From the IMG/VR virus record IMGVR_UViG_2657244940_000009, positions 1 through 8,998 of that record: a stretch of DNA of 8,998 bases. One strand, written 5' to 3'. The DNA is from a virus (taxonomy: Duplodnaviria; Heunggongvirae; Uroviricota; Caudoviricetes). Shown piece after piece: positions 1 through 6,449 of this stretch. The stretch's first letter is position 1. The number at the start of each line of letters is the position of its first letter. The notes beneath the pieces were generated by a model. That model searched no databases and was not told where the DNA came from. It saw nothing but the letters and a program-made list of their open reading frames with translations. A program made the position numbers and the translations under genes.

Positions 1-237
1 CAACGGTTCGTTCCCTTCACATAACCCGGCAGCAACATCCATGAAAAACTGCTTCGCCTGCTTTTTCGCCTCAGCTTCGTAAAACTCCAGCGTGGCACCT
101 TCAGTACGGTCAAGACTAATCGCCACATTTGCCAACAACAGTGACGGATACCCACCAATTTCCAGTGCCACAGTAACAGTAATCTTATCCGGGTAATGAT
201 TTATCCCTTTAACAACCAGTTCGTATTTTTTCTTCAT
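1..237 (-). CDS. Hypothetical protein, 5' part only (79 codons, continues off the left edge); not a recognisable endolysin
   Basis: Manual reverse-strand translation from ATG at 237..235: MKKKYELVVKGINHYPDKITVTVALEIGGYPSLLLANVAISLDRTEGATLEFYEAEAKKQAKQFFMDVAAGLCEGNEPL, no stop before position 1. Absent from the ORF track because it is open-ended. Starts 4 nt after the holin stop. Confidence 0.45.
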   Translation of the reverse strand, partial: MKKKYELVVKGINHYPDKITVTVALEIGGYPSLLLANVAISLDRTEGATLEFYEAEAKKQAKQFFMDVAAGLCEGNEPL

Positions 238-241
238 CGCT

Positions 242-457
242 TTACTCTCCCCGCGCCGCCTTACGACGGTCCTCTCTGATTTTGAAATACAGGTTAGTCA
301 GATATGTCAGCAGCCCAAACAGCAGACTTCCCAGTACGCCTATTGCCGCCCACTGAGACGGGGAAACCCTGTCCAGCAGCTGCAGGAACCAGTAGCCCGT
401 CCCCACCGCTGACGTGGTGTATGACACACCTGTTGTGATTTTTTCCATCTGGTACAT
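242..457 (-). CDS. S: Holin, S21/Stx-phage type (class II, pinholin-like), 71 aa
   Basis: Track ORF of 71 aa; sequence matches my recollection of the 933W/phage 21 holin family ([36 protein letters not shown]). Dual-start motif M1-Y-Q-M4; GGGAG Shine-Dalgarno upstream. Confidence 0.9.
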
Positions 458-532
458 ACCCCGTCTCCCGCAATCCGGAAGCTCACAACAACAAGAGGGG
501 CATCAGCTCACACCGACAGCCCCTGCGCATGG

Positions 533-802
533 TTACATCATCATTTCGCCGTCAGGCTGAGGCTCACTGCTACCATCAGGCTGAGACCCGACGCCATCTG
601 AAACAGCACTGTCATCCGCAATGCCTTCCGGCTCCGGAACAGTCGGTGCGCCCAGCAGTTCATCCAGAATGGCATCCACTTCTGCATCAAGACGCTCCTC
701 AAGGTTCTGCCGAAGTTGCTGTTTCAGTGCGCTTCTGACTTCTTCAGAGCGCAGGACTTCCTTCACTGCTTCAGCAGTGACCAGCGATTTTATTTCTGAC
801 AT
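533..802 (-). CDS. Hypothetical acidic protein, 89 aa (start taken at internal ATG; the track's 127-aa version would overlap the upstream ORF)
   Basis: Track ORF 533..916 uses a non-ATG start and overlaps ORF 840..1022. The internal ATG at 802..800 gives MSEIKSLVTAEAVKEVLRSEEV...PDGEMMM. Shine-Dalgarno is weak; no family recognised. Confidence 0.45.
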   Translation of the reverse strand: MSEIKSLVTAEAVKEVLRSEEVRSALKQQLRQNLEERLDAEVDAILDELLGAPTVPEPEGIADDSAVSDGVGSQPDGSSEPQPDGEMMM

Positions 803-839
803 GGTATTTTCTCGTTGAAAGGTGTTGTTAAGAAAGTTG

Positions 840-1022
840 CTACGGAATGAGAGGCTCTTCGGGTTTTGTTCCGGCTGACTGACTGGCACTGATTTTCTCA
901 GCGGCCCTTTTGTCAATCTGTCTGCGCCAGAAATCTCTCACGACTCTGTACCCACCAGAAAGAAGATACAGCACACAAACTGCTGTACAGAAATACAACA
1001 TAATCAGCTGTAAAAATGTCAT
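840..1022 (-). CDS. Small membrane protein, 60 aa, one N-terminal transmembrane helix and a basic C-terminal tail
   Basis: ATG at 1022..1020 preceded by GGAG at suitable spacing (GGAGATGAATAATATG on the minus strand); hydrophobic stretch LQLIMLYFCTAVCVLYLL. Confidence 0.55.
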   Translation of the reverse strand: MTFLQLIMLYFCTAVCVLYLLSGGYRVVRDFWRRQIDKRAAEKISASQSAGTKPEEPLIP

Positions 1023-1171
1023 TATTCATCTCCATTATTGACATGGTCAATGCCTGCCAGTAAAAAACTCCTGCATTTTTTGCTCAGCATATTTTTGCTA
1101 AGGATGTAGCGACTTCTGCCGCCGGTTCTGGCTCCTTGTTTTCCCTGCCACGGCGGTCTTTTTTTTCCTGC

Positions 1172-3115
1172 TTACGGGTTATTCACTTCCACTGTTATAC
1201 TTTCAATCAGCACCGTATACGTCGCCGCTTTTGTGATATCCGTTACACGTAATTTGTCTGCCGCAAAAGAACCTACCGGAGACTGCGACAGCATGAACGG
1301 TGCACCATCCTGACCATCAATCACCGGCGTCACCTGAATGCTGTTATTACCGGCAAAACGGAAGCCCAGCGTATGCCATTCGTTGTCAAATGCGCCGAAT
1401 GACCCCAGCTTCGTGTTCTGGTCAGCGTTACCCTTGTGGTACATCACGTTGAGGTCTGTGGCATCGCTCTGTACGTAAAACGACGCCAGCAGATTGTTAC
1501 CGGCATTACCTTCCAGTGTGACACCCTGAGGCAATGAAGAAACCGGCCAGTACAGCGCCAGTGCGTACTGATTAGCCGTAAGCGCGCCATCGAGTTTAAA
1601 ACGACAACTGACAAGACCACCTTTACCCAGCAGGTCCGCACCATTACCAGCATCATGCTCAAGGTACCAGGGGGCTCTTCCTGTTTCCTTGGTCAGTTTC
1701 ATTGCCTTACCCCCGCTGGCTCCGGCATCATCCACGATTTGAGCCTTGCCACCTCCAGCAGCCCAACCCTGTGGTGTCAACCGTCCTTCAGACTCAGATG
1801 CCCGGTAAGCAAATAGCGTACTCATCGTCGTGGTGTCTGCGGGTGGCGTGGACGGTTTTGATGGTGTATCAGGTGACGGCTTCTCATCCGGTGGTGTCAC
1901 GGTCTGCCCGCGCATCAATTCAGCCGTGCGCCCTGCATGGAGCATAATAGCTGAGGCCAGACGGTCTGAAATGACGCCCCTGCGTGCCCATGAGCTGAAA
2001 TGGCTGTCACGCTGTGTCGAAACAAAACTGCCCTGGGTTCGGGATGCTGCACCGTAATACCCGACAGCCACAATATCCGGGTCTTCCGCCGGAGCATTCG
2101 TTGGCGTGCTCTGTCCATTCTCATCCGTCAGGAACGGTACAAAGAAAATATTCTGTGCTTCCCTGCCCTTGTAACCGCCATATACCGCCTCATATTTATC
2201 GGCGTTAAGATTCTTCCAGTAATACGTGGTGTCACCACAAATCCACGGCACCGAGCCAGCACTTCCGCCAACACACTGTGCAGAATATGCAGCCATATCA
2301 GCCCTGAACTGCTGCACCATAGTGGTAAACAGGCCGCTGTGCTGCTGACTGCCGTCCGCAAGATCATTTTCCCCCTGCATCCATACCACGGCCAGAAGCC
2401 TGTTTTTCGGGTTCTTCGACAGCGCCGCTTTTGTACGGAAGAGAAAATCCTGATACAGCGGTTTACCCACTCCCCAGCGGGCTGAATTTGCCGATGCGCC
2501 AGACGTTTCGCTGAACGTGCCGTCATTACCCACGGTTAAACCAGACCCGCCACGGCAACAGGGCACCAGAAGAATCCCGGCATTCTGCGGGATATAAGGC
2601 AGCAGTTTTTTGGCAATATGCAGCCCCTGACCGACAGTCCCGTACTGGCCCTTACTCAGGTCTGCATGAGGATGGTTAAGTGCGCTCATGTCCTGAACAT
2701 CATGCAGACAGTGGTCTGCCGGAATAACGTCATTGTATGCACAGATATCACCACCCGGCGTCACAGTGCTGCGACGGGCCAGCTGCTTAATACGGGAGTC
2801 AGGGCGATCATAGGTCTCCGGCAGAGGAAGCCCCTCACCATAGGCCATACCGTTCGACTGCCCGGCCAGGGGAATAACGTAGTAATACTCCGGTTCAGTG
2901 GTAGCCACTCCCGGAGAGCCACCAGCCCCTGTGTCGGGCACAACCACAGGCGTGGTCACATCACCCTCTGCGGCAATGGCCTGCATCAGTGTATAAGGCG
3001 TGATAGCCACAGGACTGCCAAACGGCTGCCAGCCTTCCTTCAGTTTTTGTGTCAGTCGCTCCGCAAGGTCTGACGGCGACGCCGCCCTGACCACGTCATA
3101 GTGTTTAAATGCCAT
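1172..3115 (-). CDS. nanS-p: Prophage sialate O-acetylesterase NanS-p (N-terminal DUF1737-like region plus SASA/SGNH esterase), 647 aa
   Basis: Track ORF 1172..3145 starts at TTG; the ATG at 3115..3113 has a strong Shine-Dalgarno (GGGGAGGAATA-ATG) and gives MAFKHYDVVRAASPSDLAERL, the N-terminus I recall for Stx-phage NanS-p. GQSN motif (IPLAGQSNGMAYGEG) is the SASA esterase block. Position (downstream of Q/tRNAs, upstream of holin) matches Stx prophages. Confidence 0.85.
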   Translation of the reverse strand: MAFKHYDVVRAASPSDLAERLTQKLKEGWQPFGSPVAITPYTLMQAIAAEGDVTTPVVVPDTGAGGSPGVATTEPEYYYVIPLAGQSNGMAYGEGLPLPETYDRPDSRIKQLARRSTVTPGGDICAYNDVIPADHCLHDVQDMSALNHPHADLSKGQYGTVGQGLHIAKKLLPYIPQNAGILLVPCCRGGSGLTVGNDGTFSETSGASANSARWGVGKPLYQDFLFRTKAALSKNPKNRLLAVVWMQGENDLADGSQQHSGLFTTMVQQFRADMAAYSAQCVGGSAGSVPWICGDTTYYWKNLNADKYEAVYGGYKGREAQNIFFVPFLTDENGQSTPTNAPAEDPDIVAVGYYGAASRTQGSFVSTQRDSHFSSWARRGVISDRLASAIMLHAGRTAELMRGQTVTPPDEKPSPDTPSKPSTPPADTTTMSTLFAYRASESEGRLTPQGWAAGGGKAQIVDDAGASGGKAMKLTKETGRAPWYLEHDAGNGADLLGKGGLVSCRFKLDGALTANQYALALYWPVSSLPQGVTLEGNAGNNLLASFYVQSDATDLNVMYHKGNADQNTKLGSFGAFDNEWHTLGFRFAGNNSIQVTPVIDGQDGAPFMLSQSPVGSFAADKLRVTDITKAATYTVLIESITVEVNNP

Positions 3116-3203
3116 TATTCCTCCCCTTTCCGGGATTTTCCTCAACAGTTGCGGGCCACGGTCCGGCTACACGGAGAATCAAAAGAGGAGAACCGCAGCC
3201 CGC

Positions 3204-3234
3204 AAAACGAAAAAGGCCGCGCAGTTGCGCAGCC
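3204..3234 (-). terminator. Candidate intrinsic terminator or attenuator in the nanS-p leader
   Basis: Minus-strand stem GGCTGCGC / GCGCGGCC (8 bp, one G-U), loop AACT, followed by TTTTTCGTTTT. Confidence 0.45.
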
Positions 3235-3298
3235 TTATCACAGATGGTAAAAATCAGAACACGATAATAAAAATACCTGATGTATATTCATGCGACCC

Positions 3299-3326
3299 GC
3301 CCGCCACTCACTGCGGGCTTTTTTTT
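3299..3326 (+). terminator. Plus-strand intrinsic terminator-like hairpin (opposite to flanking genes)
   Basis: gcccgc (3299-3304) / gcgggc (3313-3318), 8-nt loop, then T8 (3319-3326). Confidence 0.45.
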
Positions 3327-3334
3327 GCCCATAG

Positions 3335-3361
3335 AAAAGCCCCTCCGGAGAGGGGCTTTTT
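3335..3361. terminator. Bidirectional intrinsic terminator
   Basis: Perfect 7-bp stem gcccctc / gaggggc with 4-nt loop, flanked by AAAA on one side and TTTTT on the other, so a T-run follows the stem on either strand. Confidence 0.6.
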
Positions 3362-3601
3362 ACAGTGGTAGTGTAGACAATTTTGCATGGTGCCGGGTGC
3401 CTCCCGGTGAGTTCAGTATCAGCACCTGAACCCGCACAGAAAGGATAAGGGTCGGTGACAAAACACCAGTTGCTGATTGCCCCTCCGCTTAGGGGGATTC
3501 ACCATGCCAGTTTCTTTTAACAAACTCCCCGCAAACCAGACAACAGTCAACCGCCTGAATTGTGAGGTATTTAAAAATTTCAACGGGTAACTGATACCCT
3601 G

Positions 3602-3763
3602 CTAATCGCCTGATGCTTTCTTTTTCAGCAACGGGAAAGCAACAACCACCACACCCGCCACCAGCACACCGTCAGCCAGCACTGACATTATCCGGCTGCT
3701 GAAGTCCACCATCACCACCATCACCACCAGAAACAGCAGGAGCGCAACCACAGCCAGACGCAT
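3602..3763 (-). CDS. Small hydrophobic protein, 53 aa, two predicted membrane helices; start 8 nt after the TerB-like stop
   Basis: Manual translation: MRLAVVALLLFLVVMVVMVDFSSRIMSVLADGVLVAGVVVVAFPLLKKKASGD. Below the ORF-track size cut-off. Weak Shine-Dalgarno and a repetitive GTG/CAC-rich sequence, so a chance ORF is possible. Confidence 0.3.
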   Translation of the reverse strand: MRLAVVALLLFLVVMVVMVDFSSRIMSVLADGVLVAGVVVVAFPLLKKKASGD

Positions 3764-3771
3764 TTTTACCG

Positions 3772-4203
3772 TCACAGATGATTCTCCAGACGAAGGCCCA
3801 GAACACCGGCAATCTCTTCCAGCACCTTGCGCTCTTCCGGCTCTATTTCGCCGTCTGCTTCGGCAATGGCCACCGCCACATCCAGCACGTCTTCCGCTTC
3901 ACGCGTATCGTGTTTCACATCCTCGATCTCACGTAACGCCGCTCGACGACCAATTTTAAAGTTCGTATCCAGCTGACCGATAATGGTTGCGCTAATCGCA
4001 TTAATTTCTGACGTAAACGCGGACAACGCAGGCTGGTTACGCAAGACCTGCTCGATCTTCGCTTTCTCTGAAGCCTCACATTCACCATCTGCATAGGCCA
4101 CCAGATAGGCAGCATTAATAACCGCCTGTGCCAGATCACGTTTCTCAAACTTTTTAATTTCCACTGCCGCTCGGCGGGCTTTTTTACCAAAAATACCAAA
4201 CAT
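3772..4203 (-). CDS. TerB-like (tellurite-resistance TerB family) domain protein, 143 aa
   Basis: Track ORF 3772..4275 starts at a non-ATG codon; ATG at 4203..4201 has AAGGAA 7-8 nt upstream and gives MFGIFGKKARRAAVEIKKF. Two TerB-like segments (AAYLVAYADGECEASEKAKIEQVL and VAVAIAEADGEIEPEERKVLEEIAGVLGL) resemble the helix-aDG-helix repeats of TerB as I recall them. Confidence 0.65.
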   Translation of the reverse strand: MFGIFGKKARRAAVEIKKFEKRDLAQAVINAAYLVAYADGECEASEKAKIEQVLRNQPALSAFTSEINAISATIIGQLDTNFKIGRRAALREIEDVKHDTREAEDVLDVAVAIAEADGEIEPEERKVLEEIAGVLGLRLENHL

Positions 4204-4335
4204 CGTGACGTTCCTTTGGGTGGGTGAGCCAACGCCCGGGAGCGATCTGCCCACAGAGAAAGTCACACTGACCACTCCGTAAGCTCACCCCCGAAAGGCT
4301 CTGTGGTTGATATGCGCCGGGCGTGGCGCAGATAC

Positions 4336-4358
4336 AAAAAAAGCCCGCCGAAGCGAGC
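4336..4358 (-). terminator. Intrinsic terminator after the tRNA cluster
   Basis: Minus-strand GCTCGC-TTCG-GCGGGC (one G-U) followed by TTTTTTT. Confidence 0.6.
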
Positions 4359-4371
4359 CTGATAATAAATC

Positions 4372-4446
4372 TGGAGCGGGTAGCGGGAATCGAACCCGCA
4401 TCATCAGCCTGGAAGGCTGAGGTAATAGCCATTATACGGTACCCGC
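4372..4446 (-). tRNA. tRNA-Gly (anticodon TCC), phage-borne, glyT-like
   Basis: Hand-folded: perfect 7-bp acceptor GCGGGTA/TACCCGC, anticodon stem TCAGC/GCTGA, loop CTTCCAG, T-arm GCGGG-TTCGATT-CCCGC, discriminator U, encoded CCA. Position 8 is C rather than the usual U. Confidence 0.75.
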
Positions 4447-4449
4447 ATA

Positions 4450-4525
4450 TGGTGCCGGCTACCGGAATCGAACTGGCGACCTGATGATTACAAGTCAGTT
4501 GCTCTACCATTGGAGCTAAACCAGC
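4450..4525 (-). tRNA. tRNA-Thr-like (anticodon TGT) with degenerate anticodon and T stems; possibly a pseudo-tRNA
   Basis: Acceptor GCTGGTT/AGCCGGC pairs with two G-U; canonical D-arm GCTC-CAATGGTA-GAGC; anticodon stem only 3 bp with loop CTTGTAA; T-stem has one mismatch; discriminator A; encoded CCA. Confidence 0.5.
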
Positions 4526-4530
4526 ATGTT

Positions 4531-4605
4531 TGGCGGGACAGCGTGGACTCGAACCACGATAAGAAGGTTAACAGCCTTCCGTAATGACCTTTATACGACT
4601 GACCC
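4531..4605 (-). tRNA. tRNA-Asn (anticodon GTT), phage-borne
   Basis: Perfect anticodon stem GAAGG/CCTTC with loop CTGTTAA; perfect T-arm CGTGG-TTCGAGT-CCACG; acceptor GGGTCAG/CTGTCCC with one mismatch; discriminator G; encoded CCA. Confidence 0.7.
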
Positions 4606-4609
4606 AAAT

Positions 4610-4651
4610 AAAAAAAGCCACCGTTGCAACTTAAGAGTCACTAACGGCAGC
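4610..4651 (-). terminator. tR'-like terminator between Q and the tRNA genes
   Basis: Minus-strand 9-bp stem GCUGCCGUU / AACGGUGGC (two G-U) with a 17-nt loop, followed by TTTTTTTATTT that abuts the 5' end of tRNA-Asn. Confidence 0.45.
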
Positions 4652-4696
4652 ATATGCCAATAGTGTTGCTCATTTGCTCAATGATGTCAACACGTC
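4652..4696 (-). promoter_or_regulatory. Candidate pR'-like late promoter / Q-utilisation region
   Basis: Consensus -35 hexamer TTGACA on the minus strand at 4690..4685, just after the Q stop; I could not identify a convincing -10, so this is positional inference from lambdoid architecture. Confidence 0.25.
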
Positions 4697-5185
4697 CTAT
4701 GCTACATGTTTAATTTTCTCTACACGTTTCCGGTTTTTAAACGCACTATCCAGAACCGGGTAAATCATAAACAACGAGGCATTAAGGATTTCGTCAACTT
4801 CCCGTCGACAGGTTGCGAGCGATGGTTTTTGAATGCGCCCGCCGCCCCGGCATAACATCTTGCGAGGTCTTGCGACGCAATGATAGTAAGATGCAATGGC
4901 GTGCCTGGAAGAACCATGAGCGTAGTAGCTGAGGAGGATGCCGAAGGCTTTCTTGTCAATGTACATGACGGAATCGACGACCTGAGAAATCAACATTCCA
5001 TCATCATCATTACACATTGGCCTTGTCATAACTCTTCCCGGCTCTACGCTCTCCATGAACTTCGCTATTACGCTGCTCATGCGCTTTTCCAGACGACCTG
5101 AATAAACCCATGCGCCCCACAGTTCAAGCCAGCCATTCAGCCACTCGTGCTGTTCTTTGGTGAGGTTTAGTTCTCTTATGCCCAC
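4697..5185 (-). CDS. Q: Late antiterminator Q (phage antitermination Q family), 162 aa; start codon uncertain
   Basis: WGAW motif and Cys/His cluster ([14 protein letters not shown]) as in Q proteins of 933W-type phages as I recall them; immediately downstream of ninI with a 10-nt overlap; track start is GTG with GGAG/AAGG upstream. Confidence 0.8.
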
Positions 5186-5847
5186 GCGCCTTCTCCCTGT
5201 ACCTGAATCAATGTGAGGTTTCCGCAGAACACTGCGCCGGTATCGATATACATCTGGTTGGCAAACTTGAGTGGTTTCACTGCTGGCGTATGACCAAAGA
5301 TGAACGTGTCCGCGCCTTTAATTTCTTTCACGATCCCGTCTTGTGAGTTGCCGATTCGTTCGCGGTTCCAGATTACCTGCTGAGGATCAACTGGCTTTCC
5401 AAATTCGTATTCGTTACAAGGATAATCGGCGTGGCAAATGACATATTTTTTATCTTTGCTCACCAGTTCGATGATTAACGGAAGTTCTTCTGCTTTATGG
5501 GCAAGAGCTTTAGCCAGAATCTCTTTGTCGTAATCGAGATTGAAGAACCAGCCACCGCCATTAAGCAGCCAGTGATTAACGTTTCCACGCTCTGATAAGC
5601 CATCAATCATCATTTGCTCATGGTTTCCACGTACAGCTCTGAACCAGGGGAATGTGATTAATTCCAGACATTCGACGTTCTCTGTACCGCGATCAACCAA
5701 ATCGCCAACCGAGATGAGCAGGTCTTTTTTGTTGTCGAATCCAATCGTATCCAGTTTGTTCATCAGGTTCGTGTAGCATCCGTGCAGGTCGCCAGCTACC
5801 CAAATATTTCGGTATTTGCTGCCATCAATTCTTTCGTAGATATTCAT
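5176..5847 (-). CDS. ninI: NinI Ser/Thr protein phosphatase (lambda PPase homologue), 223 aa
   Basis: Near-identity over most of the length to lambda phosphatase as I recall it; metallophosphoesterase motifs GDLHG, GDLVDRG, GNHE; ATGA overlap with the ninG stop. Confidence 0.95.
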
Positions 5848-6449
5848 GCAGCCTCACTTCTGCTATTTCGCAGTTTTTTAAGTTTCTGTTGGTACTCTTC
5901 CTTGATCGCCTTGCACTCTTCGACAGTCCAGCGATGGCGGTTATGGTTTGATTCGATTTCATCTACTGCTTCCTGCCCGATGCGGCTAATCAGTTCGACG
6001 CGATACGGAACGAGATTTCCGCTTTTGTGCTGGTTGCACACCACGCATTGCTTGTGAATATTGCGTTCATCAAATCGGAGTTGAGGTGCCGCAGCAGTTG
6101 TCCGGTAATGTCCGGCATCCCACTGAGCAGACGTGAGCGTTCCGCACGAGATACATGGTAAGTCGCGGTCTCTTTCTCTGATGAAGGCGTTTACGGCTTG
6201 TTGGGCTTGTTTAATCCAGTAACTGCGGGGCTTTAAGGCGAGTTTTCGAATCTTCAGTTTATCTTTCTGTTTCTGCTCCTCTCGTCGTCGTTTCTTCTCT
6301 GCTGCTTTTTCCGCTTTTTCGCGTTCTTTACTTCGTCGTTCGAGTGCTAATTGAGTTCCGTGTTCCGGGCAGCACCACCACTGATTTGAGAATGCCGGGT
6401 GAAACCATTCTTTGCATATTTTGCATTTCCTTCGCGCTGGTTTAGCCAT
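5844..6449 (-). CDS. ninG: NinG (Rap) protein, 201 aa
   Basis: Strong match to lambda NinG as I recall it ([65 protein letters not shown]); Cys-rich motifs; TAATG overlap with the upstream gene. Confidence 0.95.

Follow-up and report, generated by a model that had tools for sequence, protein, structure and literature searches.

Why should a lambdoid prophage carry genes for three transfer RNAs (tRNAs), specific for asparagine, threonine and glycine, directly behind a late terminator, and which of the three is being kept for a purpose? The question is raised by a stretch of 8,998 nucleotides (nt) that is called the window here, namely positions 1 to 8,998 of the IMG/VR virus record IMGVR_UViG_2657244940_000009, in which positions 4372-4605 consist of three tRNA genes, all on the minus strand and in the transcription order Asn, Thr, Gly. 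The reading favored here, with a probability of roughly one half, is that the trio belongs to a late leader of the phage 21 type, in which the Asn and Thr genes replace host tRNAs cut by defense nucleases while the Gly gene is a decaying passenger. Features of this kind have already been annotated and do not constitute a new system; the variant described below is a recombinant middle gene with a plausible nuclease-escape allele. What is new is the chimeric nature of the Thr gene, its G42U/U43C allele, which is predicted to fit the published rule for resistance to the nuclease P2-OLD, and the conservation of Asn and Thr as against the disruption of Gly. The use of phage tRNAs as a counter-defense against tRNA-cutting nucleases has been shown only recently, and mostly for virulent phages such as T5; the locus would extend this logic to temperate phages, here lambdoid prophages in pathogenic lineages of E. 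coli.

The three genes were called as follows.

4531..4605, minus strand: tRNA-Asn(GTT) of the phage 21 type; ARAGORN, and Rfam RF00005 at 4605..4534, 55.3 bits, E 4.7e-10.
4450..4525, minus strand: tRNA-Thr(TGT), chimeric; Rfam RF00005 at 4525..4453, 49.0 bits, E 2.6e-8, and ARAGORN at the 95% threshold only.
4372..4446, minus strand: tRNA-Gly(TCC), derived from glyT; ARAGORN, and Rfam RF00005 at 4446..4375, 55.4 bits, E 4.5e-10.

All of them exceed the RF00005 gathering score of 29 bits, all have the GTTCGA T-loop and all encode CCA. An earlier sequence-only reading had placed them at exactly these boundaries with 3-5 nt between them, and so they lie, the Asn and Thr genes being separated by AACAT (5 nt, 4530-4526) and the Thr and Gly genes by TAT (3 nt, 4449-4447); it missed the strand, evidently having read the reverse complement. 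Its label “Thr-like” was apt, for the middle gene has the weakest score of the trio and is not the tRNA-Thr of phage 21. With its defaults, ARAGORN called Asn(gtt) at 4531-4605 and Gly(tcc) at 4372-4446 and missed the gene between them, which it reported as tRNA-Thr(tgt) at the 95% threshold, and the PGAP annotation of the CB9615 lineage likewise has no Thr gene. The Asn gene is regular in its anticodon stem and at U8, a base that is nearly universal in tRNAs. The Thr gene forms three of the five anticodon stem pairs, with mismatches C28-U42 and A27-C43, and the Gly gene has C8 in the U8 position and a G38 able to pair with C32. Judged by the established rules for tRNA identity, the elements read from the sequence are intact in Thr (G1-C72, C2-G71, G35, U36 and A73) and in Asn (G73 and the GUU anticodon).

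The origin of each gene could be traced by alignment. The first is identical at 75 of 75 positions to the tRNA-Asn of phage 21, is 100% identical in phage 21, Sf6, JLK-2012 and CB9615, and is unrelated to the host gene asnT. The second matches the tRNA-Thr of phages 21 and Sf6 only over nt 1-26, where it is identical to it; nt 27-76 agree with the host gene thrU at 46 of 50 positions, the differences being G42U, U43C, A49G and U68C. The crossover lies inside GGTAGAGCA, a run of 9 nt in the D-arm that is common to both parents. The TAT spacer and the Gly gene that follow match those of Thr-Gly cassettes that E. coli prophages carry downstream of other Q families; there the Thr gene often shows 100% identity to K-12 thrU, and the Gly gene differs little from glyT. 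As these alignments indicate, the Thr gene is a recombinant of the phage 21 tRNA-Thr and a thrU-derived phage allele, brought in together with the glyT-like Gly gene. None of the three is thus an identical copy of a host gene, and that possibility, which the sequence-only reading had named as a way in which it could fail, was rejected, although it was approached: the Gly gene and the 3' two-thirds of Thr are host-derived. Two of the four differences from thrU, G42U and U43C, break the pairs 28:42 and 27:43 and leave the sequence UCAUC in the arm; they cost the cloverleaf about 4.5 kcal/mol, so that an alternative fold is favored, and the Rfam score of 49.0 bits compares with 73.8 for thrU and 61.5 for the phage 21 tRNA-Thr.

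An event comparable to the Thr recombination is seen in PM4-5 (L159, NZ_CP096834, about 1590-1680) and in EC100, where a deletion runs between the T-arms of the Asn and Gly genes at a shared GGTTCGA. The product is an Asn-5'/Gly-3' hybrid whose acceptor stem does not pair and which is non-functional; in PM4-5, PGAP annotates no tRNA for it, and further downstream the TerB gene is interrupted by a stop codon.

These details matter in light of two nucleases of the Toprim family. P2-OLD, for which Gam is the trigger, kills by cleaving the host tRNA-ThrU at paired CNG motifs at 28-30 and 40-42; resistance needs both an alteration of the CNG motif and a shortened anticodon stem, and the phage 21 tRNA-Thr itself was tested and protects cells (Govande et al. 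2025, PMC12445682). AriB, of the PARIS system, targets Lys(UUU), Thr(UGU) and Asn(GUU) at U36AAUC|A41, and its cleavage is abolished by a change of U39 (Belukhina et al., PMC12409363). Asn-GUU and Thr-UGU account for two of the three tRNAs that PARIS mainly attacks, and the latter is also what P2-OLD chiefly cuts. Host and phage genes compare as follows at the sites concerned.

Host asnT: both paired CNG motifs; UAAUCC at the AriB site; 5 stem pairs.
Host thrU: both paired CNG motifs; UAAUCA at the AriB site; 5 stem pairs.
Host glyT: both paired CNG motifs; CAAGCU, with no UAAU; 5 stem pairs.
Phage Asn: neither CNG motif; UAACCU (C39); 5 stem pairs.
Phage 21 Thr: neither CNG motif; UAAGCG; 4 stem pairs.
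Window Thr: 5' CUG kept and 3' CAG changed to CAU; UAAUCA intact; 3 stem pairs.
Window Gly: both CNG motifs; CAGGCU, with no UAAU, and G38; 5 stem pairs.

A37 is present in host asnT, thrU and glyT. The anticodon arm of the phage Asn is GAAGG/CCUUC, and with C39 in place of the host U39 (UAACCU versus UAAUCC) it is the only one of the window's Asn and Thr genes that carries a substitution in the U39 region. The window Thr has the UGU anticodon and a stem of 3 pairs as against the 5 of thrU, and its CNG pseudo-palindrome has lost the 3' strand (CAG to CAU), with the 5' CUG kept and C28 unpaired; at the AriB site it has the UAAUCA of host thrU, which replaced the phage 21 allele UAAGCG. The window Thr would thus be predicted to fit the published two-factor rule for OLD resistance and not the pattern of PARIS escape. 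It resembles the tRNA-Thr6 and tRNA-Thr21 that rescue cells from P2-OLD (PMC12445682) in having UGU as its anticodon, fewer pairs in the anticodon stem and a CNG motif that is altered, at least in the 3' strand. The changes differ, being G30C/C40G with U43A in Thr6, C28U/G42A with a G27-A43 mismatch in Thr21 and G42U/U43C in the window, for which resistance is a prediction, and the window Thr, unlike the other two, loses the CNG motif of one strand only. The prophage JLK-2012, the close relative described below, carries gam.

The sequence-only reading had proposed that phage tRNAs may replace host tRNAs cleaved by anticodon nucleases, and that the three isoacceptors would indicate which host tRNAs matter. 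For Thr and Asn the first idea found backing in the protection that the phage 21 tRNA-Thr affords and in the targets of AriB. Gly gave no such pointer: no nuclease specific for Gly(UCC) was found in the literature, the full P2-OLD substrate list of PMC12445682 not being covered, and the gene looks to be decaying. Among other tRNA cutters in the literature, the retron type IX system is indiscriminate and HepS targets Thr, Ile and Ser tRNAs.

The two-base change of the Thr gene is not confined to the trio. The UCAUC arm was found in 28 IMG/VR contigs, and 11 of these hold full-length thrU-like genes beyond the trio, on at least 5 sequence backgrounds; at least 4 Q types precede them, and they occupy the interval from Q to the lysis genes, in arrays that include ileX-like-Lys(UUU)-Thr-Gly and Met-Arg(UCU)-Thr-Gly. 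One further viral contig has CC at positions 42-43, which disrupts the same two pairs. That the arm is simply the native thrU of another species was ruled out, for among 185,579 species-representative genomes, one for each species, the sole match was an E. albertii prophage contig with the chimera. The recombinant Thr can be seen as an experiment set up by nature, in which two bases of a tRNA of host origin are changed in a way that is met in phage cassettes only.

One of these arrays, L012 (IMG/VR 2718218098_000005, reverse strand, 7679-7988), has an ileX-like gene, Lys(UUU), Thr with the UCAUC arm and Gly behind a lambda-like Q. Its Lys(UUU), which adjoins the Thr, has UAAGUU in place of UAAUCA, which we take to be the AriB site of the host tRNA-Lys and which is thus altered. 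Irregular genes were also seen: a glyT-like gene with anticodon TAC and G38 that ARAGORN calls Val (L024, 10122-10193, reverse strand), and two “tRNA-??? (cg)” genes with an irregular anticodon loop (L028, 3560-3633, and L034, 3220-3293, both reverse strand).

How evenly the three genes are kept was examined across 21 trio loci with 8 haplotypes. Variable sites numbered 0 of 75 in Asn, 1 of 76 in Thr, 6 of 75 in Gly and 9 of 45 in the downstream spacer; Asn and Thr together differ from Gly (Fisher p=0.006), over what are few events given that the 8 haplotypes are closely related. The sole Thr polymorphism, U68C, makes a G5-C68 pair out of G5-U68, with a gain of 5.6 kcal/mol for the cloverleaf. 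The Gly variants, in contrast, are U8C, G10A, G39U, G53C, C63U and U66C, and all of them except C63U, which leaves a G-U wobble, disrupt a pair or a conserved base. Relative to glyT, to which it is identical at 71 of 75 positions, the window Gly carries the compensated pair C6U/G67A together with U8C and A38G; through the last of these, the anticodon loop is predicted to close via C32-G38, and the Rfam score is 55.4 bits versus 64.9 for glyT. From this pattern we read Asn and Thr as maintained and Gly as a decaying passenger under relaxed constraint, which has probably lost its function.

For the trio to matter in infection it must be expressed, and here the sequence upstream is telling. Between the Q gene and tRNA-Asn lie 91 bases that can be aligned with the late promoter of phage 21, which has been mapped by experiment; pR' was assigned by this homology only. 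The parts of the region are as follows.

4697..5185, minus strand: Q antiterminator gene of the phage 21 type, 162 amino acids; Pfam PF06530 Phage_antitermQ, 86.8 bits.
4655..4690, minus strand: late promoter pR', aligned base for base with the mapped phage 21 elements.
4690..4685, minus strand: -35 box TTGACA of pR', aligned to phage 21.
4682..4667, minus strand: Q-binding elements ATTGAGCA/AATGAGCA, aligned to phage 21.
4667..4662, minus strand: -10 box AACACT of pR', aligned to phage 21.
4655, minus strand: start site A of pR', aligned to phage 21.
4654..4648, minus strand: sigma-dependent pause element TATGCTG, aligned to phage 21.
4651..4617 and 4616..4606, minus strand: tR' terminator, hairpin and U7AUUU run, from its fold and by sequence comparison.
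4331..4360, minus strand: second intrinsic terminator from a terminator scan, with an 8-bp stem, a UUCG loop and U7.

The Q gene has counterparts in JLK-2012 and phage 21 that carry the annotation Q or antiterminator, and this antiterminator, pR', the Q-binding elements and tR' lie immediately 5' of the tRNA genes. The tR' hairpin (-18.4 kcal/mol, z -5.1; none of 200 shuffles was equally stable) is identical in sequence to the terminators of phage 21 and Sf6, and tRNA-Asn begins at the base directly after the U7AUUU run that ends at 4606, just as the sequence-only reading had put the first tRNA right behind the T-run of a terminator. That reading had also held that expression should require read-through by Q. 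Since the promoter, Q-binding elements, terminator and Q gene are identical or nearly identical to those of phage 21, Q-dependent expression is well founded by homology, and that Q-mediated read-through expresses the cassette is a sound inference for the window copy. A simple sigma-70 promoter scan of 4250-4750 called no site, missing pR' because its -10 box is weak. In the pause element the window has TATGCTG where phage 21, JLK-2012 and Sf6 have TAAGCTG, one base nearer to the -10 consensus. On the other side, directly 3' of tRNA-Gly, the second terminator forms a stem-loop at 4360..4341 followed by T7 (the 44-nt segment 4371..4328 folds at -12.3 kcal/mol, z -3.0), so that the cassette is bracketed by two terminators; neither phage 21 nor the donor-type Thr-Gly cassettes have the sequence of the second.

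In the favored explanation, RNA polymerase would start at pR' (4655) and halt at tR' (4616..4606) unless modified by Q at the Q-binding elements, and the modified polymerase would ignore tR' and continue over the tRNA trio and past the second terminator as far as the late genes, the tRNAs then being freed by RNase P together with 3' processing. Asn(GUU) and Thr(UGU) would be under selection to replace host tRNAs destroyed during lytic growth by two nucleases of the Toprim family that P2-like prophages and satellites carry, P2-OLD and PARIS AriB. Asn is the conserved phage 21 allele, whose anticodon arm has neither nuclease motif. Recombination within GGTAGAGCA joined the 5' part of the phage 21 Thr to a thrU-derived allele from a Thr-Gly cassette, in which G42U/U43C was already present, destroying the CNG motif of the 3' strand and reducing the stem from 5 pairs to 3; the loss of CNG and the shortening of the stem are the two features by which phage tRNA-Thr has been shown to resist P2-OLD. 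Gly(UCC) would have arrived as a passenger and now be under relaxed constraint. If this is correct, tRNA cassettes of late leaders could be read as a record of the tRNA-targeting defenses that their phages have met; otherwise the locus is an ordinary mosaic feature of a prophage.

Several points weigh against this explanation. The UCAUC arm disfavors the cloverleaf, with a gap to the ensemble of 9.3 versus 2.9 kcal/mol, and the fall of the Thr score to 49 bits would equally fit a damaged gene. The window Thr keeps the CUG motif of its 5' strand and an intact AriB site, and may be sensitive to PARIS. Both the nuclease resistance of the chimera and its aminoacylation are predictions made from sequence. 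Viral contigs with UCAUC are far outnumbered by those with the host-like GT form, 28 as against at least 116, a rough ratio in which many of the GT matches are possibly host genes at prophage edges or from other taxa. P2 old was found in 17 of 5426 complete E. coli genomes and in none of the trio genomes identified (H91-H103), and P2-OLD itself therefore cannot be the main pressure and was ruled out as such. The small number of events behind the conservation statistics counts on the same side. Lastly, homology to JLK-2012 ends at 7659 and the sequence is chromosomal from 7660, so that the prophage in the window is a truncated remnant without an early region, and this copy of the trio may no longer be expressed by its own Q. 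Its tRNAs would then depend on leaky termination at tR', on transcription reading in from outside, which is conceivable since the neighboring chromosomal gene ogt is oriented as Q is, or on a Q21-type protein from another phage.

Other explanations must account for the same facts. The supply of rare codons was the alternative use that the sequence-only reading had offered, with the tRNAs raising the decoders for ACA (Thr-UGU) and GGA (Gly-UCC), which are rare in E. coli, and so speeding late protein synthesis. Comparison of the JLK-2012 genes with 48 K-12 genes bore out the enrichment, ACA making up 22.7% of the Thr codons versus 9.9% in K-12 (odds ratio (OR) 2.7, p 2e-11) and GGA 18.8% of the Gly codons versus 8.8% (OR 2.4, p 2e-11), and the paper on phage SfI reports the same ACA bias (PMC3636060). 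Related cassettes also contain other rare-codon tRNAs (ileX-like, Arg-UCU and Arg-CCG), with Gly-UCC nearly always the last. The enrichment is unspecific, however: AUA, AGA and AGG are enriched more strongly (OR 4.8-6.8), yet the phage has no tRNA for them, and ACA is enriched more in early genes (OR 4.1) than in the late genes that are co-transcribed with the tRNAs (OR 1.9). Asn shows no meaningful bias in JLK-2012, nor does it in the SfI paper (PMC3636060). Codon supply would also leave the persistence of the stem-breaking UCAUC allele unexplained, and Gly, its best candidate, is the very gene that gathers disruptive changes. As an explanation of the set it was set aside, and it is an unlikely one; as a weaker and less specific rival to the replacement of cut tRNAs it may contribute for Thr and Gly.

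More doubtful still is the idea of relics: recombination would have left Thr and Gly, or in this remnant all three genes, without a function, and they would persist through their position between Q and the lysis genes. Much of what was described above would suit such relics: the scores below those of the parents (Thr 49.0 versus 61.5 and 73.8, Gly 55.4 versus 64.9), a Thr gene that ARAGORN misses by default and PGAP omits in the CB9615 lineage, the C8 and loop-closing G38 of Gly with the lineage-specific changes G10A, G39U, G53C and U66C, the loss of most of the cassette in PM4-5 and EC100, and the truncation of the prophage at 7659. An invariant Asn across phage 21, Sf6 and the trio does not suit them, nor do a Thr gene whose only polymorphism improves pairing, variation in Asn and Thr far below that of Gly or the adjoining spacer, the retention of the UCAUC allele on several backgrounds and the intact identity elements of Thr and Asn. 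There is finally the principle, established in other systems, that tRNA-like structures can punctuate a transcript. With a terminator on either side of them where the late transcript begins, the tRNAs might serve mainly to be cut by RNase P and RNase Z, a cleavage that would free the pR' leader and determine both where the late mRNA starts at its 5' end and how stable it is. This is very improbable, for the same late region is retained by relatives of phage 21 that lack Gly and by deletion variants that have no intact tRNAs, and the conserved anticodons and the identities of Asn and Thr would be left without a reason.

Within the nuclease-replacement explanation, a more tentative idea concerns the way in which such alleles move. 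Segments common to tRNAs, such as GGTAGAGCA in the D-arm and, in the PM4-5 deletion, GGTTCGA in the T-arm, may let lambdoid phages re-assort escape anticodon arms with different bodies. The thrU gene with G42U/U43C might then be a selected OLD-family escape allele spreading between late-leader cassettes, and the chimera might have exchanged an arm that evades both PARIS and OLD for one that evades OLD and is sensitive to PARIS. We consider this possible though less probable than not; if true, it would mean a change in which defense systems the phage can overcome.

The trio and its parts have known relatives. Annotations of an Asn-Thr pair downstream of a Q of the phage 21 type exist for phages 21 (OL657228), Sf6, SfI and BTP1 and for many P22-like phages, and the SfI paper takes the pair up (PMC3636060). 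All three genes together have been annotated in Escherichia phage JLK-2012 (JQ347801, 99.3% identical) and in RefSeq genomes; the trio occurs in 13 of the 5426 complete E. coli genomes, mostly O55:H7 with a few others, and in 17 IMG/VR contigs and one E. albertii contig, and the copies in JLK-2012 and the complete E. coli genomes are 99.3-100% identical to the window. The sequence-only reading had missed this earlier annotation, as it had the recombinant Thr gene, the host origin of Gly and of the 3' part of Thr, and the truncation of the prophage.

Compared with the leader of phage 21, the window has the same Q family, -35 box, Q-binding elements, -10 box, terminator hairpin, tRNA-Asn, AACAT spacer and nt 1-26 of Thr. 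It departs from the phage 21 Thr allele at nt 27, adds Gly and the second terminator, and has TerB and DUF3927 genes, STnc100 and a SASA esterase gene before the holin gene. JLK-2012 is a 57-kb prophage record in which an att site, int, cI, gam and tail genes are annotated; the window corresponds to its right-hand part only, has different esterase and holin alleles, and is joined to ogt at 7659/7660. Other lambdoid Thr-Gly or Ile-Thr-Gly cassettes (ETEC4068, H2, AR437; L012, L030, L035) share the thrU-type Thr, TAT, the glyT-type Gly with its C6U/G67A pair and the position from Q to lysis, some of them with the UCAUC arm, but have a full-length thrU-type Thr (many 100% thrU), no Asn and other Q families, and their Gly keeps A38 and U8. 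Stx phages of the 933W type carry ileZ-argN-argO upstream of stx, after Q and tR' and before the late genes, a moron-like tRNA array in the same position; the isoacceptors there are rare-codon Ile and Arg, the Q family is another one and there is no stx in the window. The sequence-only reading had remarked that the set looked unlike the Ile/Arg/Arg of 933W, and rightly so: the Q region is of the phage 21 type, in which the Asn-Thr pair is standard.

The remaining content of the window completes this picture. On the 5' side of the Q gene are genes for a NinI-like phosphatase, NinG and an antirepressor, and on the 3' side of the cassette are genes for TerB and DUF3927, the STnc100 small RNA (sRNA), a SASA-family esterase gene and a holin gene of the P21 type. 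The TerB-family and DUF3927 genes (3602-4275, minus strand) are named tciA and tciB in JLK-2012, and their position directly after the tRNAs is that of the stx genes in Stx phages. STnc100 is full-length (3327-3536, minus strand; Rfam RF02076, 144 bits, E 1e-32) and lies between the DUF3927 and SASA esterase genes. Beyond the end of the prophage the following features were recorded.

7741-8256, minus strand: ogt, chromosomal.
8603-8698, minus strand: McaS/IsrA sRNA, 112.8 bits.
8756-8998: IS1-like end.

The 7659/7660 junction was found in none of the complete E. coli genomes in the collection. The flanks of the cassette appear to be hot spots for insertion: in L009 (E. coli UTME-3, 2440-2952) an HNH endonuclease gene lies between Q and the junction of tR' with tRNA-Asn, and 2013C-4830 (L010) has an insertion of two small hypothetical genes behind tRNA-Gly.

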